From a virus (lineage: Duplodnaviria > Heunggongvirae > Uroviricota > Caudoviricetes): 10,133 nucleotides of DNA. The DNA lies in the IMG/VR virus record IMGVR_UViG_2695420701_000015; one strand, given 5' to 3'. Shown here piece by piece: positions 1 to 10,133 of this stretch (position 1 is its first letter; every line of letters begins with the position of its first letter). The position numbers and the translations under genes were made by a program. The notes under the pieces were generated by a model. It saw nothing but the letters and a program-made list of their open reading frames with translations, was not told where the DNA came from and did no database searches.

Positions 1-35
1 TGAGACTAACTTTTGAGACTTCTAAGGGGAACATT

Positions 36-587
36 ATGGCGATACTTGGATATTGCAGGGTGAGTACAGATGACCAATCCATCACTAACCAGCAAATGCA
101 AATTGAAGAGGCAGGGTACAACATTGCTAAATGGTTCACTGATGAAGCTGTCAGTGGTTCTGTCAAAGCTTCTTTAAGAAACGGTTTCAGCAGACTATTA
201 GCTTATGCACGAGAAGGTGACACCGTAGTTGTGGTAGCTGTAGACCGTCTTGGACGTGACACAATTGATGTGTTATCAACGGTTAAAGCGCTACAGGCTA
301 AAGGTGTGACAGTTATCAGCCTTAGAGAAGGGTTTGACTTATCAAGCGCTATGGGTGAAGCAATGTTAGGCATTATGTCAACGTTGGCACAGCTTGAAAG
401 AAGCTTGATAGCAGAGCGTAGAAAGGCTGGTATTGAACGTGCTAAAGCTGAAGGGGTACATATGGGAAGACCTGTAAAAGCTTCTTCAGAGGCTGTACAG
501 ATGCTTATTTCACAAGGTAAAACGAGGTTGCAGATTCAGGAAGAGCTAGGAATCTCTAGAGCAACTTATTACAGACTTGCTAAATAA
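36..587 (+). CDS. Small serine recombinase (resolvase/DNA-invertase family), 183 aa
   Basis: Complete ORF. N-terminus MAILGYCRVSTDDQ carries the catalytic-serine motif of small serine recombinases; VDRLGRD motif; C-terminal HTH-like [13 protein letters not shown]-like AAGGGGA about 6 nt upstream of the ATG. Confidence 0.9.
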   Translation: MAILGYCRVSTDDQSITNQQMQIEEAGYNIAKWFTDEAVSGSVKASLRNGFSRLLAYAREGDTVVVVAVDRLGRDTIDVLSTVKALQAKGVTVISLREGFDLSSAMGEAMLGIMSTLAQLERSLIAERRKAGIERAKAEGVHMGRPVKASSEAVQMLISQGKTRLQIQEELGISRATYYRLAK

Positions 588-776
588 GTTACTGAATAGT
601 TACATGGATGTAGCTGATATTTGGCTTTTTTGCCAAGGGGGTCACATAGCTGGTGTGACGGGTACTAAACACGTATACATCATGAGGTAGATTCTACCGA
701 ATCAACTAGACAGATATTTTCGAAGATTCGGGGAAGATGAGATTCAAAGAGGGCTAGTCATTTTTTATAAAAAATT
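198..776 (+). repeat. Copy A of the recombinase-3'/downstream module (3' part of the gene plus about 190 bp downstream)
   Basis: Direct repeat of 777-1356. The first 80 bp downstream of the stop (588-667) are identical in all three copies and contain palindromes TTGGC-T6-GCCAA and GTCACA-N7-TGTGAC. Copy A has a distinct 44-bp patch (668-711). Confidence 0.85.
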
Positions 777-1164
777 AGCTTATGCACGAGAAGGTGACAC
801 CGTAGTTGTGGTAGCTGTAGACCGTCTTGGACGTGACACAATTGATGTGTTATCAACGGTTAAAGCGCTACAGGCTAAAGGTGTGACAGTTATCAGCCTT
901 AGAGAAGGGTTTGACTTATCAAGCGCTATGGGTGAAGCAATGTTAGGCATTATGTCAACGTTGGCACAGCTTGAAAGAAGCTTGATAGCAGAGCGTAGAA
1001 AGGCTGGTATTGAACGTGCTAAAGCTGAAGGGGTACATATGGGGAGGCCTGTAAAAGCTTCTTCAGAGGCTGTACAGACGCTTATTTCACAAGGTAAGAC
1101 GAGGTTGCAGATTCAGGAAGAGTTAGGAATCTCTAGAGCAACTTATTACAGACTTGCTAAATAA
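777..1164 (+). pseudogene. 5'-truncated second copy of the serine recombinase gene (C-terminal about 129 codons only)
   Basis: nt 777-1164 align to nt 200-587 with 5 substitutions (4 synonymous, 1 Met->Thr). The catalytic N-terminal domain is absent; ORF-track ORF 808-1164 starts at an internal Met. Confidence 0.8.
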
Positions 1165-1356
1165 GTTACTGAATAGTTACATGGATGTAGCTGATATTTG
1201 GCTTTTTTGCCAAGGGGGTCACATAGCTGGTGTGACGGGTACTTAGCAGCTACAGACATCTGTCAGATATTTTTGAAGATTCGGGGAAGATGAGATTCAA
1301 AGAGGGCTAGTCATTTTTTATAAAAATTTTCAGACTCTGAAAAGTTACTGTACAGA
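777..1356 (+). repeat. Copy B of the recombinase-3'/downstream module (tandem, head-to-tail with copy A)
   Basis: Junction at about 774-777, where ...TTTTATAAAAAATT joins AGCTTATGCACGAG (gene position about 200). Downstream part 1165-1356 matches 3491-3684 almost exactly. Confidence 0.85.
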
Positions 1357-1508
1357 ATATATACAGATATCTTTAAAGTATCTGTAAAAACTTTTAAGAT
1401 AAAAGATAGATATCCCAGAAAGGATATCCGTTTAGAAAACCTGTTAAGTATCTCTTAAAAGAGAGTAAACCTTGTCAAGAGTGATTGCAATAAAAATTTT
1501 TATTTCTT

Positions 1509-2171
1509 ATGTCAATTGAGCATATTTTAATCGGGAAGCATCATGGGGGTTCTGATTACTGGAGAACTCCATTTTTGTTATTTAAGAACTTACACCGTGA
1601 ATTTATTTTCAGTCTAGATGGTGCTGCAACTGAGCATGACACGCTGTTACCACGATTCACCGATGATATAAGCCGTCAATCATGGGTTAGTGAAAAGGTC
1701 TTCTGTAACCCGCCGTACAGCGATATTCCGTCGTTCCTCTTAAAAGCGTCTGAAGCGGATTTAGTAGCTTTCCTGATACCGCATAGAGCCAACACCAGCT
1801 ACTGGCTTAGGCACATTTACAGCAATAACCACTGTCATGAAATCCGTATTCTTCATCGTGCAGTTAAATACCTTCCACCAGCAGGGCATAACAGGCTTAC
1901 TATTAGGTCACCGTTTCCAAGTGCAGTCGTTGTTTTTAAAAAAGAACCACGTAAGCATGAAATTACACAGATGGTTTGCTGTGCTGATACATTGCTACCG
2001 TTAACCATCATTAACCGTGGTGGACTAAGAGGAAGACCCACCATTTACCCACCTGAGACGCTCGACAGCTTCATAAAACTATACAGGCAAGGAAAACCCA
2101 TTAAGTACATTGCAGATGCTCTCAGAATGCCTCTGAGCACGTCATACAGGATTGCTCAAAGGTTGAGCTAA
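1509..2171 (+). CDS. DNA N6-adenine methyltransferase, phage Dam-like family, with C-terminal HTH-like extension (220 aa)
   Basis: Motifs DYWRTP, LDGAA and FCNPPYSD (NPPY catalytic motif of amino-methyltransferases) in the order typical of the phage Dam family. C-terminal about 45 aa (KPIKYIADALRMPLSTSYRIAQRL) resembles a resolvase-type HTH. No adjacent restriction endonuclease gene is visible. Confidence 0.75.
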   Translation: MSIEHILIGKHHGGSDYWRTPFLLFKNLHREFIFSLDGAATEHDTLLPRFTDDISRQSWVSEKVFCNPPYSDIPSFLLKASEADLVAFLIPHRANTSYWLRHIYSNNHCHEIRILHRAVKYLPPAGHNRLTIRSPFPSAVVVFKKEPRKHEITQMVCCADTLLPLTIINRGGLRGRPTIYPPETLDSFIKLYRQGKPIKYIADALRMPLSTSYRIAQRLS

Positions 2172-2275
2172 AATTCTCATAAATATGGTCATTTACAAGA
2201 CAGGTGATTCAGATGTTAAGAAGTATCCCCGTGAACAATAAATGACCAATCAGTAATCATTCTGTGAAATAATTG

Positions 2276-2304
2276 TTGCAATTTATAATCACATCTGTTA
2301 TAGT
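2276..2304 (+). promoter_or_regulatory. Candidate sigma70 promoter (TTGCAA-17 bp-TATAGT)
   Basis: Hexamers and 17-bp spacing read directly. It lies about 230 bp upstream of the 2535 ORF, so the assignment is tentative. Confidence 0.3.
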
Positions 2305-2534
2305 TTCTATATGGGCTGATAAAAAAGTTCATGTCTTGAAGTGGTAACACTTGGGGAGGTGTCAGATGGTTGGCGTATATTAACCTCTCATTCAGGGTAT
2401 ACCTCAGCGTTTTAATCATCGTACTGTTTCAGGCATGGACTTCTTTATCAGTCCATCAATCCCCCAGATATTTTAATCACACAGGCTAATCGGTTTTATC
2501 CGGTTGGCCTTTTCACGTATGAGGTAATTTATGA

Positions 2535-2924
2535 ATGTCTAAATATAACCCAAATCAGTTTTATAAATTTGATGTGCGAATCTCTCAACTTTCAGAAGAA
2601 ATTAACGCAGCAGCAAGATTGATTTATATGGTCATGGTCCATAGCTGTGACTTCTATGAAGAGAAATACAAATCATATTCACCAAGTATTGACCATCTCG
2701 CTTATATGGCTGGTGTATCAAAGAGAACAGCAATCAGAGCCATTGAGACACTTGAGAAACACGGTTTAATTCAGGTGCAAAAGAATCAGGGGCGTCAAAG
2801 CACTTATCGTGTATTCACACTGGATGATAAGCCGGAATTACTTGTAAGACCTACATCACAGGAAGTTGCAGCCTCAGTAAGACAAAATGACACCACTACC
2901 AGTGACAAAATGTCATGGGGGTAG
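2535..2924 (+). CDS. Winged-helix DNA-binding protein, possible replication-initiator or regulator N-terminal part (129 aa ORF)
   Basis: Segment LAYMAGVSKRTAIRAIETLEKHGLIQV is HTH/winged-helix-like. GAGG lies 10 nt upstream of the ATG. The ORF stops at a TAG (2922-2924) between two 15-bp repeats, and the coding signal continues in another frame. Confidence 0.5.
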   Translation: MSKYNPNQFYKFDVRISQLSEEINAAARLIYMVMVHSCDFYEEKYKSYSPSIDHLAYMAGVSKRTAIRAIETLEKHGLIQVQKNQGRQSTYRVFTLDDKPELLVRPTSQEVAASVRQNDTTTSDKMSWG

Positions 2925-3138
2925 TGACAAAATGTCACCCGTGTTAGAGTTAGATAAGTTATTAGATAAAACATTAGATAATAATATTACAGATAAGAAT
3001 AAAGAGACTGGACTTAATGATGATATTAAAGAAGATGACTTTCTTTCTTTGGATGAATTAAATGATTTTCTCTCTATGAATGAATCTGACCTTGAAGTAA
3101 GCTCTAAAAAGGGTGATGCTGCCAACTTACTGATTTAG
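2887..3138 (+). pseudogene. Acidic C-terminal continuation of the rep-like gene in a shifted frame, 3'-truncated by IS1
   Basis: ORF 2887-3138 re-reads the second 15-bp repeat as SDKMS, the same peptide ORF 2535-2924 reads from the first repeat. Its last 9 codons (GDAANLLI-stop) are encoded by the IS1 left inverted repeat, so the native 3' end is missing. Confidence 0.35.
2901..2937 (+). repeat. Two exact 15-bp direct repeats AGTGACAAAATGTCA, 22-bp period, each containing the palindrome TGACA-N3-TGTCA
   Basis: Read directly: copies at 2901-2915 and 2923-2937. The 7-bp spacers differ (TGGGGGT versus CCCGTGT). Confidence 0.9.
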
Positions 3139-3450
3139 TGTATGATGGTGTTTTTGAGGTGCTCCAGTGGCTTCTGTTTCTATCAGCTGTCCCTCCTGTT
3201 CAGCTACTGACGGGGTGGTGCGTAACGGCAAAAGCACTGCCGGACATCAGCGCTATCTCTGCTCTCACTGCCGTAAAACATGGCAACTGCACGCATTATG
3301 GGCGTTGGCCTCAACACGATTTTACGTCACTTAAAAAACTCAGGCCGCAGTCGGTAACCTCGCGCATACAGCCGGGCAGTGACGTCATCGTCTGCGCGGA
3401 AATGGACGAACAGTGGGGCTATGTCGGGGCTAAATCGCGCCAGCGCTGGC
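3112..3450. mobile_element. IS1 remnant: intact left terminal inverted repeat, insA with internal deletion, start of insB; right part absent
   Basis: GGTGATGCTGCCAACTTACTGAT at 3112-3134 matches the IS1 left inverted repeat as I recall it. The following sequence encodes the InsA N-terminus ([41 protein letters not shown]). About 85 bp appear to be missing after 3291 relative to canonical IS1 (from memory). IS1-like sequence stops at 3450. The segment is visibly more GC-rich than its flanks. Confidence 0.8.
3167..3334 (+). pseudogene. insA: insA remnant (GTG start), frameshifted by the internal deletion
   Basis: Translation from GTG at 3167 gives the InsA N-terminus and then diverges after ...KTWQL into [14 protein letters not shown]-stop. 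The InsA C-terminal peptide [21 protein letters not shown] is encoded in a different frame. Confidence 0.7.
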
Positions 3451-3451
3451 A

Positions 3452-3684
3452 TAGGAATCTCTAGAGCAACTTATTACAGACTTGCTAAATAAGTTACTGA
3501 ATAGTTACATGGATGTAGCTGATATTTGGCTTTTTTGCCAAGGGGGTCACATAGCTGGTGTGACGGGTACTTAGCAGCTACAGACATCTGTCAGATATTT
3601 TTGAAGATTCGGGGAAGATGAGATTCAAAGAGGGCTAGTCATTTTTTATAAAAATTTTCAGATTCTGAAAAGTTACTGTACAGA
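3452..3684 (+). repeat. Copy C of the module: last about 13 codons of the recombinase gene plus downstream region
   Basis: TAGGAATCTCTAGAGCAACTTATTACAGACTTGCTAAATAA and the following about 190 bp match 549-587 and 1165-1356. It begins abruptly inside IS1-derived sequence. Confidence 0.85.
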
Positions 3685-4630
3685 TTTTGCACAATCCTAC
3701 CAAACCTCATAGTTGATTCGATTAGAAGCTAATCTCATAGAAAGCTCTGTAGCGAGTTTTAACCCCATTTTTAGGGGTAACCTATAGGGATGTACTAACC
3801 ACCTTAAAATAAAGGGGTAAAATCGCTTAGAATGCGTTACAGAGCGTCTGAGAAGCCATATTCACAGATTTTACTAAAACCTCAGACTTCTAAGTAGTCT
3901 TTTAACAGGAGGGGTTCCCCTATGGTCACATATCCCCTCTCTTTCCACTAAGTAAGCCTTAGCAGCACCTAAGCAACAATTGACTAACAGATTCGGTAGA
4001 GTCTATCTCATAGGTCAACTTCATAAACTCAGAGCTAAGTTACCTTGAAAGATTCTACCAAGAACTACACAGGTGTTATTTAGTCTGACTGTGAAGGGAT
4101 ATTTAACGGGAGAAGAGATACGATATAACCCGAAGGGAGAGTATCATCTTAACAATTATCTTAAGAATAAAACTGAAAAACTCTTAACAGATAACCACCT
4201 AGAAAGAAGGGAACGATAAGACCAGAGGTAGTGACCTGTTAAACAGGCTGTTTCAAAGTCTCTTAAAAGTCTGTTAAGTAAGGTCATGTGAACAATCTTA
4301 CCATTTTGTCAATGCTTTTGTCTTTGACCTAAATCAATAAAATGTATCGTTTGATATGCTTTTAAACAAAATAGCTAAAAAATCTTTTTTTAGAGGGGCG
4401 CTTCGCTTGGGGTCACTATGAATGATTTTTCTCTCGCTAAGAGAGCGCTTACAGAGGTCTTTCAAATCTCAATAGCCAGCCGAGGAACACAGGAAACCGA
4501 GGGAAGAAAAACTATTGTGATTACCTTGAACAAGGTCTGTAAAGGTCGTTTAAGAGGTCGGTTAAGAAAGGAGCTTCCCTCTCTGGGGTTATCGCTCTTC
4601 TCCCGATTAGTGGGGCGGTTAAGGGGGCTT

Positions 4631-4812
4631 GAAGTTATCTGTGAAGGTACTGGACAGTCTTATATATTGGGTGATTACAACTCGTTGAAAAATAAGCATT
4701 TTTAGAAGTTACTGTTAAGGTTGCAGAGTTGTCTGTGAAGAGACTTGTCAGTTCTCTATATATGGCTAATTACAACTTATTGAAAAATAAGAACTTTTAG
4801 AAATTACTGTCA
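4631..4812. repeat. Two imperfect tandem direct repeats, about 94-bp period
   Basis: TCTGTGAAG...TTGAAAAATAAG(C/A)A(T/C)TTTTAGAA(G/A)TTACTGT occurs twice, starting at 4638 and 4732, roughly 80 percent identical by eye. Confidence 0.8.
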
Positions 4813-4945
4813 GAGAGGTGAATGCTTGATAGACACAGCTTTCCGGTTCTGTCAAGCTATTTTTTAATAGATAGCACAAAATGCTAAAGACACCCCTGTA
4901 CCATAGACTTCTATCTGTCATCTCGTGCAGGGGTTTTGAAGGAGT

Positions 4946-5122
4946 TTAACGGGGGTCTGTGTGGTCGTTATCCTTAAGGTCAAGCGTCCATGTACGACCG
5001 AACAGTTTAAAGACAACAAGCACTCTGACGAGGACGTAGCGAAGTAGCAGGCCTGCAATCAGCCCAATACCTCCACCAGTCCATACATCAGGTGACCCCA
5101 GCTCAGGAGGGAGATTTACCAT
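4946..5122 (-). CDS. Candidate small membrane protein, 58 aa (MVNLPPELGSPDVWTGGGIGLIAGLLLRYVLVRVLVVFKLFGRTWTLDLKDNDHTDPR)
   Basis: Internal Met of ORF-track ORF 4946-5278 (-). AAGGA RBS 6 nt upstream on the minus strand. One predicted transmembrane helix with a charged C-terminus. The palindromic element 5137-5234 lies immediately upstream. Confidence 0.35.
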   Translation of the reverse strand: MVNLPPELGSPDVWTGGGIGLIAGLLLRYVLVRVLVVFKLFGRTWTLDLKDNDHTDPR

Positions 5123-5136
5123 TAGTTTTCCTTGTA

Positions 5137-5234
5137 AGACGCTCTCAATCGCATTCTGACACAAAAAGTACCTGACCTTATGAGTTGACCTGAAGAGGTC
5201 GTTTAACTCGTTACAGGGCGATTGAAGAGGTCTG
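5137..5234. repeat. Palindromic repeated element, copy 1 (terminal inverted repeats AGACGCTCTCAATCGC / GCGATTGAAGAGGTCTG)
   Basis: Both terminal arms are shared with copy 2 at 6765-6886; the central part differs. It sits immediately upstream of the RBS of the minus-strand small ORF. Confidence 0.8.
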
Positions 5235-5336
5235 TGTGCAATGCAAAATATGCGACCAAATACATAGCCACGCCTCATATTTTACTCTCCCCATAAACCC
5301 ATTATACCACAGATGTTACGAAAATGTTAAAAATAC

Positions 5337-5365
5337 TTGACATTAGTCTTTGAAAATGCTAATAT
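5337..5365 (+). promoter_or_regulatory. Candidate sigma70 promoter TTGACA-17 bp-TAATAT
   Basis: Consensus -35 and near-consensus -10 with 17-bp spacing, about 50 nt upstream of the 5417 ATG. The -10 is followed by TGTATATAT, as at the 7320 promoter. Confidence 0.55.
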
Positions 5366-5416
5366 TGTATATATAGGTTAACAGAATAATAACATCTTCT
5401 GAGAGTCAGAACATGA

Positions 5417-5974
5417 ATGCAGTATTCAGAATTTAGAGCGATGCTTCAGGCATCAAGAGAACGCAACAAGCACAACTCCTACGCTTACACAAACAACCCC
5501 ACCAGCTACGAAGTCCCAACCTTTAGCAAATCCGAACGTAAGAACATTGAAGCGGTCATTCGTAGCATTACGCCACGAGACAGATTTATGCCAGTACGCA
5601 AAACAACAAAGAATACTATTAAAAATTATCTGGCTAACTTTGACAGTTACGAGCAGTTACCAAGCAAGCTTGATGATGTTTTTATTGGGTTCTGTAGAAG
5701 TGAAGGCCACCCGAAATACAACAAAAAACTATTTTATCTGCTAAAGAATCTTGACGAAATTAACGCATCCACCGTGACAAATCATCTTCAGCGACAGGCA
5801 ACCAGACTTAGTTACGAATTACCAAGCGATAAATATTGCGCTTTGCTTGCTGTGATGTGCGCGAAATTAATTGGCATTGTTGAACATCATATTGCCGTTG
5901 GGAATATTGAGCCAATGGAAAACGAGCAACCAGATTTCGAGTTTGACCCCTATTTAGTTACAGAGGATTTTTAA
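5417..5974 (+). CDS. Hypothetical protein, 185 aa, acidic C-terminus
   Basis: Long ORF downstream of the candidate promoter; first gene of a run of tightly abutting ORFs. No family recognised. Confidence 0.7.
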   Translation: MQYSEFRAMLQASRERNKHNSYAYTNNPTSYEVPTFSKSERKNIEAVIRSITPRDRFMPVRKTTKNTIKNYLANFDSYEQLPSKLDDVFIGFCRSEGHPKYNKKLFYLLKNLDEINASTVTNHLQRQATRLSYELPSDKYCALLAVMCAKLIGIVEHHIAVGNIEPMENEQPDFEFDPYLVTEDF

Positions 5975-6253
5975 ATGAATAAACACACATTAACCAGAGT
6001 TACAAAGACAGCCTTTGATGAACTGAACCGAATCAAAAACATTACAGGTCTGCCACACTCAGCAGTGATGAAGCTTGCAATTAACCGTGATATTAACGAA
6101 CAGGATTTGCTTAATAGTCGCTTAGAGGCTGCAAGACACCATATCAGGATTAAGCAAGATGACCTTGATAGTCTGAAATCCTTAAATGCTTTTGGACTGG
6201 ATTTAGCAAGGTTACTAAGTATCAAAATTCACAAACTGTCTCAGGAGGTCTGA
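5975..6253 (+). CDS. Hypothetical small protein, 92 aa
   Basis: ATG immediately follows the upstream stop (TAAATG); GAGGA lies upstream. No family recognised. Confidence 0.65.
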   Translation: MNKHTLTRVTKTAFDELNRIKNITGLPHSAVMKLAINRDINEQDLLNSRLEAARHHIRIKQDDLDSLKSLNAFGLDLARLLSIKIHKLSQEV

Positions 6254-6255
6254 TT

Positions 6256-6528
6256 ATGAAGCAATGGCGAGATGATATTAAACGGTTCTTTGCAACTTAC
6301 TTCATGATTAATTATGAGACAGGAATGCTTGAATGGATTGATGGTGGAGAGGTTAAGACAAGAGATGATGCTTACGGTAATCCAATGATTCGTTATGGCA
6401 CTCGTGATTATTATCTGAAGTATGTCATCTGGTTTTTGCATCATGAAGTTCAGGCAACTAAAAAGATTATCTTCAGGGATGGTAATAAAAGAAATTGCCA
6501 CCCAAACAATTTACTCCTGGAGATTTAA
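6256..6528 (+). CDS. Small protein with degenerate HNH_3-like motif, 90 aa
   Basis: AGGAGG RBS 7 nt upstream. C-terminal half (YLKYVIWFLHH...IIFRDGNKRNCHPNNLLL) resembles the HNH_3/NUMOD4-type pattern (HRxVW...IDHIDGNxxNNxxxNLRL), but the DH of the catalytic motif is replaced by FR. Confidence 0.6.
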   Translation: MKQWRDDIKRFFATYFMINYETGMLEWIDGGEVKTRDDAYGNPMIRYGTRDYYLKYVIWFLHHEVQATKKIIFRDGNKRNCHPNNLLLEI

Positions 6529-6728
6529 TGTTATGTATTAAATTCGAATATTTGACAGATAAAATGATTAAGCATGTATCAGACCTGCTCATCAAAGAAG
6601 GTGGTTTCGGTGATGCTTGCAATCCAAAAGATATCTTCATTCATGCCACCAGCCCAAACGCAACACTAAAGACAGCAGTTACAGCGGAATGGTTTGAACG
6701 AAATAAAGCGGAATTAGGTTATTGGTAG
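6528..6728 (+). CDS. Hypothetical small protein, 66 aa (ATG start; the ORF track extends to 6495 via a TTG)
   Basis: ATG overlaps the upstream stop (TAATG), indicating translational coupling. Confidence 0.55.
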   Translation: MLCIKFEYLTDKMIKHVSDLLIKEGGFGDACNPKDIFIHATSPNATLKTAVTAEWFERNKAELGYW

Positions 6729-6764
6729 TCCGAGACTTTAAGAGAAATTAGAAAAACAGCTTAT

Positions 6765-6886
6765 CAGACGCTCTCAATCGCATTCTAACGCAAAAAACTA
6801 TCTTATTTTAGGGTGGGTAATACCACTGTACAGGCTACCCCTGAAAAAGACTGTTTAGCTCGTTACAGAGCGATTGAGGAGGTCTG
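6765..6886. repeat. Palindromic repeated element, copy 2 (CAGACGCTCTCAATCGC ... GCGATTGAGGAGGTCTG)
   Basis: Same terminal arms as copy 1 and an internal palindromic core. It ends about 20 nt before the ATG of the 6907 gene on the plus strand. Confidence 0.8.
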
Positions 6887-6906
6887 GTAAAAAGGAGATT
6901 TTAAAA

Positions 6907-7230
6907 ATGAACGAATATGAATTACAGATTTTCATTGATAGCGACACTGCTATGATGGTGCAGGCTTTCGCTGATTCCGGTGTATCAATTGACCTTGATA
7001 AATTACTAAAGCTAATGGCTGAAAACTCAGAAGAAATTGAAGACTTTATTCAGGAAATTGAAACTGGTGAACCGCGTTTTATGTTTCCTGTTACCGACTC
7101 AAACATGAAGCGTCTTATTATCGAAGAAACGAACAAATACAGCGTTAGCCCTGAAAAATATCTCAAGGCGGCTATAGCAATTTTGTATAGCGATAATATT
7201 CTGGTGACGGATTCGAAGGTGGTGCATTAA
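6907..7230 (+). CDS. Hypothetical acidic small protein, 107 aa (ATG at 6907; the ORF track start at 6874 is a TTG inside the repeat element)
   Basis: AAGGAG RBS 9 nt upstream of ATG 6907. Asp/Glu-rich. Confidence 0.7.
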   Translation: MNEYELQIFIDSDTAMMVQAFADSGVSIDLDKLLKLMAENSEEIEDFIQEIETGEPRFMFPVTDSNMKRLIIEETNKYSVSPEKYLKAAIAILYSDNILVTDSKVVH

Positions 7231-7295
7231 TGGAATTGGTGATTATCTGTTTTGTATTGATTGGTATGATTGCAGGTGCATCTATTAAAGTATAA
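7230..7295 (+). CDS. Candidate 21-aa hydrophobic peptide MELVIICFVLIGMIAGASIKV
   Basis: ATG overlaps the stop of the 6907 gene (TAATG). Almost entirely hydrophobic, roughly one transmembrane span. Too short for the ORF track. Confidence 0.35.
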   Translation: MELVIICFVLIGMIAGASIKV

Positions 7296-7319
7296 ATGTT
7301 ACCAATCTGTTAAAAGCTG

Positions 7320-7348
7320 TTGACAAACAACCTTGAGCATGACATAAT
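7320..7348 (+). promoter_or_regulatory. Candidate sigma70 promoter TTGACA-17 bp-CATAAT
   Basis: Consensus -35 with 17-bp spacer, followed by TGTATATATGG as at the 5337 promoter. Confidence 0.5.
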
Positions 7349-7357
7349 TGTATATAT

Positions 7358-7385
7358 GGGGAGAGCAATTCTCTCTTATTTTTTC
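7358..7385 (+). terminator. Intrinsic-terminator-like hairpin (GGGAGAG-CAATT-CTCTC followed by TTATTTTTTC)
   Basis: Short stem followed by a T-run, 63 nt after the stop of the 7230-7295 ORF. It could terminate the 5417-7295 operon or attenuate transcripts from the 7320 promoter. Confidence 0.5.
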
Positions 7386-7516
7386 TTTCAATAATCCGAT
7401 GGATGGATATTCTGAGTTGGAAAGGTGCAATGCTTTTCGTCCTAGCCTTTCAGGTTGGTCTGAGAGGCTATCTCAAAAAGTCTTTGTTCATTCATTATTG
7501 AATCCTTTACAGCTTT

Positions 7517-7544
7517 GCCCTAATCATGAGTTAGGGCTTTCTTT
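7517..7544 (+). terminator. Hairpin GCCCTAA-N7-TTAGGGC followed by TTTCTTT
   Basis: Perfect 7-bp stem plus T-rich tail, read directly. Confidence 0.4.
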
Positions 7545-7613
7545 AAGAGTTTTTAAACAGAGCTTTTAAAGAAAGTTTTCCTGAAACTTCGTTAACGTTA
7601 TAAGCAAACCTCC

Positions 7614-7646
7614 AAAGCCCTTCACAGATTATGTTTAGGGCTTTTC
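7614..7646 (+). terminator. Hairpin AAAGCCC-N17-GGGCTTT with T-rich tail
   Basis: 7-bp stem read directly; shares the TTAGGGCTTT motif with the 7517 hairpin. Confidence 0.35.
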
Positions 7647-7717
7647 TTAATAGAGCATCTTTAATAAATCGTTAAGTCATCTTCTAAGTGTATTGGCGTT
7701 GAAGGTGCTCTATTAAG
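7646..7717 (+). promoter_or_regulatory. Perfect 12-bp inverted repeat CTTAATAGAGCA / TGCTCTATTAAG separated by 48 nt, just upstream of the RBS of the 7745 gene
   Basis: Read directly. The right arm ends 14 nt before AGAGG (7732-7736). Function unknown; could be an operator pair or a leader RNA stem. Confidence 0.5.
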
Positions 7718-7744
7718 AAATAACCACACTTAGAGGAAATTATA

Positions 7745-8455
7745 ATGACAAACGATTTATATATTAACGGTAAAAAGGTTGATAGCTTCGGAGACTGGTC
7801 ACCACAGGGTGAACATCCGCTACATACTATTCAGCGTCAAGAGCATGACAAGCGCATTGAGCTTGAGCAAGAGCTAAAGATGTCACCAAAGGTAATTTCC
7901 TTTGTGTCTCCTGAGCCTCAAGAAATGCCTGATATCTGCAAAACTGAAGCACTATTTGAGCTTGAGCGTGAATATTACCCAGCTTTAAAATCACAGCGTC
8001 TTAGACTTGATGTCGCTTACGATGCTGTTAAGAACTTCGAAGAAACCTCGAAACCTTCAGAATATGATATTGCTTACGAGATTAAGTCAAACCCGTTTAT
8101 CTATTATGAAGGAAACTTTAATGATGGTTTTGGTACAGCGATTGAAGACGTTCCTAAAGTTCTTCAAAGTATCCCTGAAGGGTTCCGGTTAATTGATGTC
8201 AGACAAGCATTAAGGGGTTCTGGTCAATTTATTCTGATGACTGATAAAACAGATGAAGAGATTCTTCAGTTAGCTGAAGCTAATTTGACTAAGCATTATT
8301 CCGGTAAACTGGATAAGTTAAAGCAAAAGCTTAAAAAAGAACTTGATACTATGAAAGAACTTGTTAGTGAATATGAGTCGCAGAAGAAGATTGCTTTGAT
8401 GGCTGATATTGAGCAGTTAACGAAGATTTCTCAGAAGTATAGCAAGGCTGTTTGA
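7745..8455 (+). CDS. Hypothetical protein, 236 aa, helical and charged C-terminal third
   Basis: AGAGG RBS 8 nt upstream. No family recognised. C-terminus rich in K/E/L, suggesting coiled coil. Confidence 0.75.
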   Translation: MTNDLYINGKKVDSFGDWSPQGEHPLHTIQRQEHDKRIELEQELKMSPKVISFVSPEPQEMPDICKTEALFELEREYYPALKSQRLRLDVAYDAVKNFEETSKPSEYDIAYEIKSNPFIYYEGNFNDGFGTAIEDVPKVLQSIPEGFRLIDVRQALRGSGQFILMTDKTDEEILQLAEANLTKHYSGKLDKLKQKLKKELDTMKELVSEYESQKKIALMADIEQLTKISQKYSKAV

Positions 8456-8477
8456 TTATGAATTAAAGAGGTGATTA

Positions 8478-8687
8478 ATGTTTGAAGAACGTTTAGAGAC
8501 TATTCGGTCTGTTTGTGAAAACTTAAAGTTACAAACTAAGCCAGCCTTAAGAATTAAAAACAAACGTCAAGTTATCACCTCACACAAACCAAAAACACGC
8601 AAGATTCCAAAGTGGTGTATTGACCGTATTCCTTCTGATGCTCAAATCATAGGTGAAACGGAATTACATTATCTTGTCCGACATTAA
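8478..8687 (+). CDS. Hypothetical basic small protein, 69 aa
   Basis: AAGAGG upstream of the ATG; Lys/Arg-rich; followed by a terminator. Confidence 0.6.
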   Translation: MFEERLETIRSVCENLKLQTKPALRIKNKRQVITSHKPKTRKIPKWCIDRIPSDAQIIGETELHYLVRH

Positions 8688-8710
8688 AAAAGAATTGGTT
8701 GGGTAAATAC

Positions 8711-8753
8711 GGGGAGAGATTATCGAGTGACATCGGTAGCTCTCCCTTTTTTT
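8711..8753 (+). terminator. Rho-independent terminator (GGGGAGAG ... CTCTCCC followed by T7)
   Basis: GC-rich inverted repeat (loop about 21 nt) immediately followed by TTTTTTT, 24 nt after the stop of the 8478-8687 ORF. Confidence 0.65.
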
Positions 8754-8843
8754 GTATGTGTGCTACGTGAAATCTGTAAAGCTAATACCCACACTGAAAA
8801 ATAGAATTTACGTACAACACGCTTAAAGAGGTGAAAAATATGA

Positions 8844-10121
8844 ATGGCACAATTTAAAGTTGATGATTTTCTGATTGAGTTAAGTTTTAACTCTCAGAAA
8901 GTTTTAAAAGGCTTGGAAAAAGCCGAGAAACAAACGATGCAGGTAGCATCACGAATTGAGAAGCGATTGAATAAGTCGTTTAGAGTTAATCCTACGCCTT
9001 TAAATGATTCTCTCAAACTAATGGAAAGAAATGTCGATAAAACTGTTTCCAAGATTGAGCAGCGTCTTAAAAACACTAGAGCGTTTAAGATTAAAACTGA
9101 AATTGAGGATACTTTAAAGCCACTTAGACAACCAAGACAGCCACGAATTAGCGGAAGCAGAGCAATCACAGCAGCTTACTCAGCGAATATGAGCAAGCTT
9201 CGTGACTTTAATCCTATGCTTGAGAAGTATTTTAAAAGCCAGTATTACAGCTTAAGCAGTAAATCCAAGACACTTGGAAACGAAACTTTTAATCGTGAGT
9301 TAGCAAAGTTAAATCAGTCTCTTCGTGAAACACTTTCTAAGTTTAACAAGACCACCAGCAAAAATAATCACAGTGAAAATGCTTCAAATAGTCTGGATGT
9401 ATTAGCTACGAGTGCAATCAAAGCAGGTACAGCCATTTATAGTTTTCAGACAGCCTTAGAAGCTTACAGGCGGATTATGGAGGTTGGTCTGAAAAAAGAA
9501 GCATCACAACGAGCGGCACAATTCGTTTTAGGTGATGAAGGTGCTAAACGAGCTACAGAATTTGTTAAGAATCTTGCTGATAGTAGTGGTGTAGACCAGA
9601 TTGAAACATTAAGCAGTTTTGCTAAGTTTTCCGCTGGTGCTGGTGATATGAATGCAGACCAGAAAGAATCCTTATTTTCTAATGTGATTGGTACATCCAG
9701 ATTAATGGGGCTAAGCACCGATGAAATTAACGGGATTTTAAAAGCTTTCGAGCAGATGGCATCTAAAGGAAAGATTCAGGCTGAAGAGCTACGCGGTCAA
9801 TTAGGTGACAGAATGGCAGGTGCTTTTCAGTTATTTGCCAGAAGTCTTGGGATGACTACGGAAGAATTAGACAAGGCCATGAAAGACGGTAAGGTTCTTT
9901 CTAAAGATGTTCTTCCTAAAGTATCCGCTGAAATGGGAAGGATGATTGATAAAGCTGGTGGATGGGAAAAGATTATTAACTCTACTCAGACGCAGTTAGG
10001 CCGCTTAAGTAATTCATGGAATAATAATCTGGCCTTAATGTTCGATGGTTCACAGGAAGGTTTAACAGACTTTACAAGGTCACTGACTAATTTACTTAAT
10101 TCACTAAATAGCTGCGCTTAA
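8844..10121 (+). CDS. Tape-measure-domain protein, 425 aa
   Basis: AAAGAGGTG RBS 10 nt upstream. Residues about 290-380 (GILKAFEQMASKGKIQAEELRGQLGDRMAGAFQLFARSLGMTTEELDKAMKDGKVLSKDVLPKVSAEMGR) match the conserved phage tail tape-measure N-terminal-type domain pattern as I recall it. Predicted helical N-terminal half. Complete ORF with TAA at 10119-10121. Confidence 0.8.
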   Translation: MAQFKVDDFLIELSFNSQKVLKGLEKAEKQTMQVASRIEKRLNKSFRVNPTPLNDSLKLMERNVDKTVSKIEQRLKNTRAFKIKTEIEDTLKPLRQPRQPRISGSRAITAAYSANMSKLRDFNPMLEKYFKSQYYSLSSKSKTLGNETFNRELAKLNQSLRETLSKFNKTTSKNNHSENASNSLDVLATSAIKAGTAIYSFQTALEAYRRIMEVGLKKEASQRAAQFVLGDEGAKRATEFVKNLADSSGVDQIETLSSFAKFSAGAGDMNADQKESLFSNVIGTSRLMGLSTDEINGILKAFEQMASKGKIQAEELRGQLGDRMAGAFQLFARSLGMTTEELDKAMKDGKVLSKDVLPKVSAEMGRMIDKAGGWEKIINSTQTQLGRLSNSWNNNLALMFDGSQEGLTDFTRSLTNLLNSLNSCA

Positions 10122-10133
10122 TACCGCTACACT

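Follow-up and report, generated by a model that had tools for sequence, protein, structure and literature searches.

Genes and expression signals at the locus

The window, that is, the whole stretch of 10,133 nucleotides that was analysed, contains on its plus strand an open reading frame for a protein of 90 residues (6256..6528), present exactly as given in the preliminary description of this DNA. Its product, which by its sequence appears to be a nuclease-dead HNH_3-like protein, is referred to here as HNHl-90; close homologues (WP_000816065 and others) carry the PGAP name 'HNH endonuclease'. The gene is the third in a run of small plus-strand genes. The first member (5417..5974) encodes 185 residues, belongs to no Pfam family and is about 84-86% identical in nucleotide sequence across islands. 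The second (5975..6253, 92 residues) exists as two alleles that are about 55% identical, and HNHl-90 is found beside either. At least three alternative cassettes occur after HNHl-90; the one in the window, directly downstream (6528..6728), encodes 66 residues. The last small gene of the operon lies at 6907..7230 (107 residues). Searches of NCBIfam and PADLOC gave no match for HNHl-90 or its operon neighbours.

A Shine-Dalgarno sequence, AGGAGG (6243..6248, plus strand), can be read 7 nt before the HNHl-90 ATG, where it overlaps the last codons of the upstream gene (end 6253) and forms part of the conserved junction motif described below. At the other end of the gene, a TAATG sequence (6526..6530, plus strand), in which the HNHl-90 stop overlaps the start of the 66-residue gene, points to translational coupling of the two genes. 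By the placement of the Shine-Dalgarno sequence and this overlap, HNHl-90 is the third member of a translationally coupled run. Consensus scanning, the only basis for the following assignments, located a sigma-70-like promoter with a TG element (TTGACA-17-TAATAT; 5337..5365, plus strand) ahead of the operon, a promoter-like site back-to-back with it on the minus strand (5330-5301), and a terminator-like hairpin followed by a run of T after the operon (7358..7376, plus strand). The back-to-back sites (5301-5365) match the consensus at 11/12 and 10/12 positions, both with TG, and lie between a small minus-strand gene and the operon in what looks like a divergent control region.

An 86-residue open reading frame antisense to HNHl-90 (6241-6501, minus strand) was rejected as the real gene, because the polymorphisms track third codon positions of the plus frame. 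These third-position polymorphisms, together with the specific fold match described below, indicate that the HNHl-90 reading frame is more than a chance occurrence.

Relationship to the HNH_3 family

The C-terminal half of the protein had been described as following the HNH_3 pattern, and profile searches bear this out. Pfam HNH_3 (PF13392) aligned with residues 52-88 over profile positions 1-38 of 46, with E=7.5e-5 and a score of 22.7 bits, which does not reach the curated gathering threshold of 24.8 bits. The PHROG HNH families 959, 99 and 1891 match weakly, and an HMM built only from canonical relatives with the Asp-His (DH) pair matches with E=3.6e-8. Judged by these sequence comparisons, HNHl-90 is homologous to canonical HNH_3 members. 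A search with phmmer against 1.84 billion representatives returned only 18 proteins at E<=0.001, consisting of near-identical E. coli variants, a 95-residue protein with 39% identity (P0011) and HNH_3-containing proteins. A PDB sequence search with HNHl-90 alone yielded only chance matches to antibody chains and a xylanase, and tblastn of HNHl-90 against phages found nothing; the P0011-like protein HNHl-95 (see below) gave a weak match to phages, only to a Sulfitobacter phage HNH gene.

The hmmscan proposed with the preliminary description thus recovered HNH_3, just below its cut-off, but neither NUMOD nor AP2. Across Pfam, with E-values of up to 10, no AP2, NUMOD or HTH family was found in HNHl-90, and the only other match was a weak, chance-level one to NCBP3 (E=0.072). 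The arrangement typical of free-standing homing endonuclease genes, a nuclease domain joined to a DNA-binding domain (AP2, NUMOD, HTH or zinc finger), is absent from HNHl-90. The protein is indeed shorter than typical members, as had been noted: canonical relatives have 157-175 residues with a C-terminal AP2 domain and I-HmuI has 174, while a few short relatives of 95-100 residues are also known (P0011, P0018, P0027).

The residue register was established with three independent alignments: one made with MAFFT that included canonical relatives and I-HmuI; one of PDB entry 1u3e with a profile built solely from degenerate members (E=0.049); and one to the HMM of canonical DH-containing relatives only (E=3.6e-8). 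All three gave the same register, in which the canonical Asp-His column corresponds to I72-F73 of HNHl-90 (codons 6469..6474, plus strand). Opposite the IIFRDGN of HNHl-90 stand VDHKDGN in I-HmuI and IDHIDGD in a canonical protein encoded by the same island family; I72 and F73 thus occupy the columns of the metal-ligand Asp and general-base His (Asp74-His75 of I-HmuI). Catalytic roles of Asp74, His75 and Asn96 in I-HmuI were reportedly described by Shen and co-workers in 2004. The earlier proposal that the catalytic DH is replaced by FR was therefore right in that both residues are gone, but its register was off by one, the replacing pair being I72-F73 rather than F73-R74. The accompanying proposal, that KY stands in place of a conserved HR, agrees with the alignments with canonical relatives: K55-Y56 (codons 6418..6423, plus strand) occupy the conserved His-Arg/His-His position at the start of the helix that precedes the finger, and K-Y is found at this helix start in the sister protein HNHl-95 as well.

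The remainder of the finger loop is kept. In the alignments, D75-G76-N77, N80 and N85, followed by L86 (6478..6510, plus strand), match the family pattern; in two alignments of relatives (A1/A2), N85 never varies and D75, G76, N80 and L86 hardly do. Both Asn positions of the finger motif, the structural one and the metal-ligand one, are thus kept in HNHl-90, and the protein ends five residues after N85. In His-Me finger nucleases, a nearly invariant His lies in the first strand, an Asn or His at the start of the helix binds metal, and a D, E or H directly before the catalytic His is a frequent metal ligand (Jablonska et al. 2017, PMC5714182). Where the first finger strand ends, HNHl-90 has F73 in the column of the general-base His, and the acidic or His ligand before it is replaced by I72, as it is by Ile in HNHl-95. 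Absence of the His or Tyr has been read as loss of nuclease function (PMC5714182). With both the metal-binding Asp and the general-base His replaced in all three alignments, the suggestion that this is an inactivated HNH_3-type domain appears well founded.

Predicted structure

The AF2 model of HNHl-90 that was computed with an 11-sequence alignment has a pLDDT of 93.4 and a pTM of 0.85; the model from the single sequence was poor (pLDDT 62) and was set aside. The predicted fold is I-HmuI-like, with an N-terminal sheet, a helix and a beta-beta finger, and its fold matches in BFVD are phage HNH endonucleases. The structure prediction that had been proposed earlier thus favors an HNH fold, and the match appears specific in the model, although the similarity is partly inherited, since the AF2 alignment is dominated by canonical HNH_3 proteins. 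The protein is nearly neutral, with 14 K/R against 12 D/E (net charge about +2), and contains histidines elsewhere (H62, H63, H82).

Sequence variation and the sister lineage

HNHl-90 is present in 67 of 5426 complete E. coli genomes, always with 96-99% nucleotide identity. The scan of GTDB species genomes produced a single find, one intact locus in E. albertii. Of 18 loci sampled, 17 have an intact gene and one a frameshift; none of the 17 intact alleles departs from I72-F73 or K55-Y56. Among the 15 distinct alleles, 14 polymorphic sites are synonymous and 8 non-synonymous, with a mean pS of 0.076, a mean pN of 0.011 and a pN/pS of 0.14. The excess of synonymous changes is significant in a binomial test (p=5e-6; 4e-7 if the last three codons are omitted), and the non-synonymous changes are either conservative (M24L, L54V, R74K) or located at residues 84, 88 and 90. 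HNHl-90 is under purifying selection and is useful to the island; the maintenance by selection is what indicates that it does something useful there. The retention of the domain, as opposed to its decay, had been surmised in the preliminary description and is borne out by these data.

Rare frameshifted, truncated or deletion-fusion forms of HNHl-90 are found in the large protein collection. Loss happens, but the prevailing state is a selected protein. Rare in-frame fusions of the dead-HNH gene to the downstream 66-residue or 128-residue gene (P0002, P0009, P0010) seem to result from deletions between short similar stretches, e.g. AAAGAT(T)ATCTTCA. Two other explanations of the variation were considered and rejected. 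A neutral pseudogene is at odds with the pN/pS ratio and the significant synonymous excess, and the idea that a cis-acting DNA site keeps the nucleotide identity high is at odds with the variation at synonymous sites (pS 0.076). Because the synonymous sites do vary, the low divergence better fits a recent spread of the cassette.

A second lineage, HNHl-95 (the equivalent of P0011), consists of 95 residues, is 39% identical to HNHl-90 and occurs in 226 of the 5426 genomes in the same island family. It passes the Pfam HNH_3 threshold with 33.4 bits. Its motif, IIHRNGN, has Ile at the Asp position with the His still present, and K-Y is found at the upstream position. The pN/pS ratio is again 0.14 (6 alleles), with residues 52-90 free of any variation; one allele has no start codon. 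Since both HNHl-90 and HNHl-95 lack the Asp and the upstream His, these losses predate the split of the lineages, and the change from His to Phe is specific to HNHl-90.

Cassette structure and gene junctions

Sliding-window identity against 8 loci delineated a conserved cassette block (6215..6500, boundaries approximate, plus strand) that is 95-100% identical in every carrier island. The high identity begins about 40 nt upstream of HNHl-90 and stops in its last codons, with flanks of 30-65%; neighboring genes in the same islands are 55-90% identical, compared to 96-99% for HNHl-90. Classical homing with co-conversion of flanks was rejected, as the high identity does not extend into the flanks. 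The synonymous divergence of HNHl-90 (0.076) is about five times below that of its neighbors in the same loci (0.36-0.49), which indicates a fairly recent spread among islands that had already diverged.

The surroundings of the gene vary between island loci. At least three unrelated alternative genes are found downstream of HNHl-90. L007 has no HNHl-90, and its 92-residue gene directly abuts a 128-residue gene, at a junction where L004, L005 and L014 carry HNHl-90. HNHl-90 is therefore an exchangeable cassette that is present or absent, and in this presence or absence between genes of otherwise homologous elements it resembles free-standing homing endonuclease genes. The order is reversed in L006, where a homologue of the 66-residue gene comes first and HNHl-95 next (L006 8955-9454). 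A gene of 66-72 residues thus accompanies a dead-HNH gene in both orders, following HNHl-90 in the window and preceding HNHl-95 in L006.

At every junction between genes of the small-gene operon, GGAGGT(T/C)T(A/G)A precedes an ATG, a motif in which a Shine-Dalgarno sequence, a stop codon and the next start codon run together. It is found at 6240-6258 and 6515-6530 in the window and at junctions in L004, L006, L007, L010 and L014; at the junction of HNHl-90 with the 66-residue gene it takes the form GGAG(G/A)TTTAATG. The motif probably supplies the short homology that lets cassettes come, go and change order. Its use in shuffling would account for residues 88-90 of HNHl-90, which co-vary with the downstream cassette.

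The host island

The window (1-10133), like L001 11900-23100, L003, L004, L005, L006 and L007, represents a chromosomal island of about 10-12 kb that is present in 411 of 5426 complete E. coli genomes; megablast of 5300-7300 against phage and plasmid collections found nothing. Complete copies are located in the yciI-tonB interval, inside a DUF72 gene adjoining yecD, or in the ymdF-wrbA interval. There are thus at least three chromosomal insertion sites, and a large serine recombinase lies at the island boundary. The left part of the island contains a small serine recombinase and/or a Dam-type methyltransferase. The small-gene operon is followed by a 236-residue protein, a tape-measure protein (TMP_3), a Dit-like tail protein and the large serine recombinase; the tape-measure and Dit-like proteins are the sole recognizable virion genes. 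No defence-system model of PADLOC matches the operon proteins, and no matching satellite type was found in the literature searched. The island might represent a phage satellite that has yet to be described, or else a stable remnant of a prophage.

In L006, the Dam-type methyltransferase is replaced by an intact HNH_3+AP2 gene on the other strand (L006 6018-6542, minus strand). The encoded protein has 175 residues with the motif WIDHIDGD...NLREV and is annotated as an 'AP2/ERF family transcription factor'. An endonuclease of the active type and a dead HNH_3 protein can thus coexist in one element.

Several other features of the window were observed. The 236-residue protein (window 7745-8455; L001 17414-18124) is called a 'transposase' by PGAP in many genomes, and no family match was found for it in Pfam, PHROG, NCBIfam or PADLOC. 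Compared with complete islands, the window is rearranged in its left part. A 577-bp tandem duplication lies in the gene of the small serine recombinase (resolvase/invertase), the segments 197-496 and 774-1073 being 99% identical, and a second repeat of 242 nt from the 3' flank of the recombinase (1124-1365 and 3452-3693) is 98% identical. An IS1 fragment (3138-3464), with an InsA zinc-ribbon and then the first residues of the IS1 transposase, adjoins a 129-residue replication-initiator-like protein with HTH_36 (2535-2924) that is seemingly cut short.

HNH_3 domains with phenylalanine at the histidine position

The distant matches of the exhaustive search are rich in HNH_3 domains whose His column holds Phe or Tyr and whose Asp column varies. 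Two such domains are found in some of these proteins, and others have a tandem series of five or six. The multi-domain proteins score 113-275 bits on Pfam HNH_3 (220-275 for the Phe arrays of five to six repeats), and since Phe-type proteins score so highly, the Pfam family must already contain them. One Phe-type protein matches 135 phage records, two of which were examined. Streptococcus phage IPP31 gp16 (L020 2150-2914) has a single Phe-type domain with the motif IVFLDGD, and BC1875 of Bacillus prophage phBC6A51 (L021 2234-2821) has the motif IIFGDGN; both score 61 bits and both are located among early genes. Phe-type proteins (IPP31, phBC6A51, P0020, P0021, P0024) are annotated as hypothetical proteins or HNH endonucleases. 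Judging from these sequences, HNH_3 domains with Phe for His appear to be common in phages and tandem arrays. The published classification names Smad MH1, PacI-like and Enpp as the only groups without the His, and describes HNH_3 as active homing endonucleases (PMC5714182).

Proposed function

Our leading interpretation, in which we place roughly even confidence, is that HNHl-90 is a minimal, catalytically dead HNH_3 derivative that is carried as a selected island cassette and binds nucleic acid without cutting it. The protein would derive from an HNH_3 homing-endonuclease domain, an I-HmuI-type His-Me finger, and would still have the beta-sheet subdomain at its N-terminus, the helix and a finger loop carrying both Asn. 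Lost from it would be a C-terminal DNA-binding domain of the AP2 type and three residues, I72 having replaced the metal-ligand Asp, F73 the general-base His and K55 the upstream His. Expressed as the third gene of the translationally coupled operon, the surviving finger scaffold would bind nucleic acid and could act as an accessory regulator or a site-occupying factor, on behalf of the island or of an interacting phage. DNA would be the most likely ligand: the part that is conserved, the finger loop, is turned towards DNA in folds of this kind, similar dead domains repeated in tandem have no sensible role other than binding, and Smad MH1 and CapR are known DNA binders. Points against this interpretation are the near-neutral charge, the missed Pfam threshold, the lack of an accessory DNA-binding domain, the fold similarity that is partly inherited from the alignment, the other histidines (H62, H63, H82), and the dispensability of HNHl-90 for the island, as it is absent in L007, frameshifted in one of the 18 loci and truncated or fused in rare variants.

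The charge and the missing specificity domain make binding to a protein the main rival of DNA binding. The dead domain may inhibit, titrate or retarget a partner, either an active HNH_3-AP2 endonuclease of the island or of an infecting phage, or the product of a neighboring cassette; we regard this as possible but somewhat unlikely. Some islands of the family do encode an intact endonuclease of this kind (the 175-residue protein of L006), the selection acts strongly on the HNHl-90 protein, and the 66-72 residue gene type accompanies both dead-HNH lineages with the order swapped. However, HNHl-90 occurs with three downstream cassettes and two upstream alleles, which argues against a fixed neighboring partner, the island of the window has the Dam-type methyltransferase instead of an AP2-HNH gene, and the conserved loop DGN..N....NL is the pattern expected of a surface that faces DNA.

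The two remaining alternatives are less likely than either binding role. HNHl-90 could be what is left of a homing endonuclease gene that no longer has a function, caught while decaying in the cycle of invasion, decay and loss, and carried along only by its position in the operon. Its missing catalytic residues and DNA-binding domain, its presence/absence polymorphism, the broken variants in databases and in one of the 18 loci, and the HNHl-95 allele without a start codon would all be in keeping with this. We nevertheless judge it unlikely: selection for an open frame alone, as coupling might impose, would not purge missense changes, yet pN/pS is 0.14 with p of about 5e-6, and the same ratio is found in HNHl-95. 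Moreover, the gene is also intact in E. albertii, and two lineages with only 39% identity share K-Y, Ile at the Asp position and the finger loop, which implies that the state without Asp is old and stable. A protein that is still an active nuclease or nickase, through non-canonical residues (e.g. H82, H62/H63, D75 or E89 together with N85) or a partner subunit, seems very improbable. The metal-ligand position N85 and the polar E89 at +4 are kept, with His residues nearby in sequence, the PGAP label is still 'HNH endonuclease', and PacI is a His-Me finger that uses Tyr as its nucleophile (PMC5714182). But Phe is unable to act as a base or nucleophile, the finger loop contains no Tyr, H82 is not conserved in HNHl-95, P0018 and P0025, C81 varies, and the metal-ligand Asp and the upstream His are lost too.

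The interpretation of HNHl-90 as a non-cutting binder can be extended in a speculative direction, which we consider doubtful. HNHl-90, HNHl-95 and the phage Phe-type domains could form an unrecognised class of 'pseudo-homing-endonucleases', i.e. domesticated, non-cutting site-binders that, in a satellite-like island, would regulate the helper phage or shield targets from HNH_3-AP2 endonucleases (anti-homing immunity).

Implications for annotation

Annotation pipelines call HNHl-90 and its relatives 'HNH endonuclease', whereas the sequence argues against cutting. Because HNHl-90 lacks the defining catalytic features and falls below the curated Pfam threshold, it should not be filed as an HNH endonuclease, and the PGAP name is probably misleading; the protein is HNH_3 by descent and would resemble a degraded His-Me finger in its working. 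What is new is the evidence for a selected, nuclease-dead HNH_3 lineage. This lineage, together with the common domains with Phe for His, suggests that part of what is annotated as 'HNH endonuclease' represents binding modules. If the island is a phage satellite, this would be a second, structurally unrelated domestication of a homing endonuclease, after CapR. In practice the gain is small, a corrected annotation and a candidate regulator, and the island and the Phe-type HNH_3 domains are more interesting leads than HNHl-90 itself.

Comparison with known systems

I-HmuI shares with HNHl-90 the DGN..N....NL loop and the setting, a small free-standing gene between other genes of a phage-like element. 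It differs in having Asp74-His75 where HNHl-90 has I72-F73, His-Arg where HNHl-90 has the upstream K-Y, and helices and an HTH at the C-terminus, where HNHl-90 has no DNA-binding domain. The closest canonical relatives in sequence are the HNH_3+AP2 proteins (P0026, P0028-P0032 and L006 6018-6542), which have in common with HNHl-90 the N-terminal 'Y-D-P-x-T-G ... W' region and the helix 'H-H-I-A-W-F-L', but are 157-175 residues long, keep D-H and contain AP2. These proteins ('AP2/ERF family') are related to the 'IPA-HNH' class of Barth et al. 2023 (PMC10448857).

The Smad MH1 and NFI domains are degraded His-Me fingers that have lost the catalytic His and still bind DNA (PMC5714182). HNHl-90 resembles the Smad MH1 type in that the catalytic His is lost (F73) while the domain is retained under selection (pN/pS 0.14, p=5e-6). 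In contrast to HNHl-90, Smad MH1 and NFI are zinc-stabilised eukaryotic transcription factors, with a distant structural similarity only and no sequence relationship. The Phe-type proteins (IPP31 gp16, BC1875, P0020/P0021/P0024) are like HNHl-90 in having Phe in place of His, in the loss of the preceding Asp and in keeping DG[ND]..N....NL, and those of temperate phages lie in early gene regions. Unlike HNHl-90, they keep the upstream K-H-[HR], score 61-275 bits on HNH_3 and are larger or repeated, and the identity over the domain is only about 25-40%.

CapR, a relative of homing endonucleases that has given up homing, binds DNA and represses genes of the helper phage on behalf of the Vibrio cholerae PLE satellite, a mobile island integrated by a serine recombinase (Netter et al. 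2021, PMC8096241). It is the best functional precedent for HNHl-90. Its lineage, T5orf172 / GIY-YIG-related, has a different fold from HNHl-90, and its DNA binding and target have been demonstrated experimentally, whereas DNA binding by HNHl-90 is a proposal. The island with HNHl-90 has a serine integrase, tape-measure and Dit-like tail genes and at least three insertion sites, and may or may not be a satellite.
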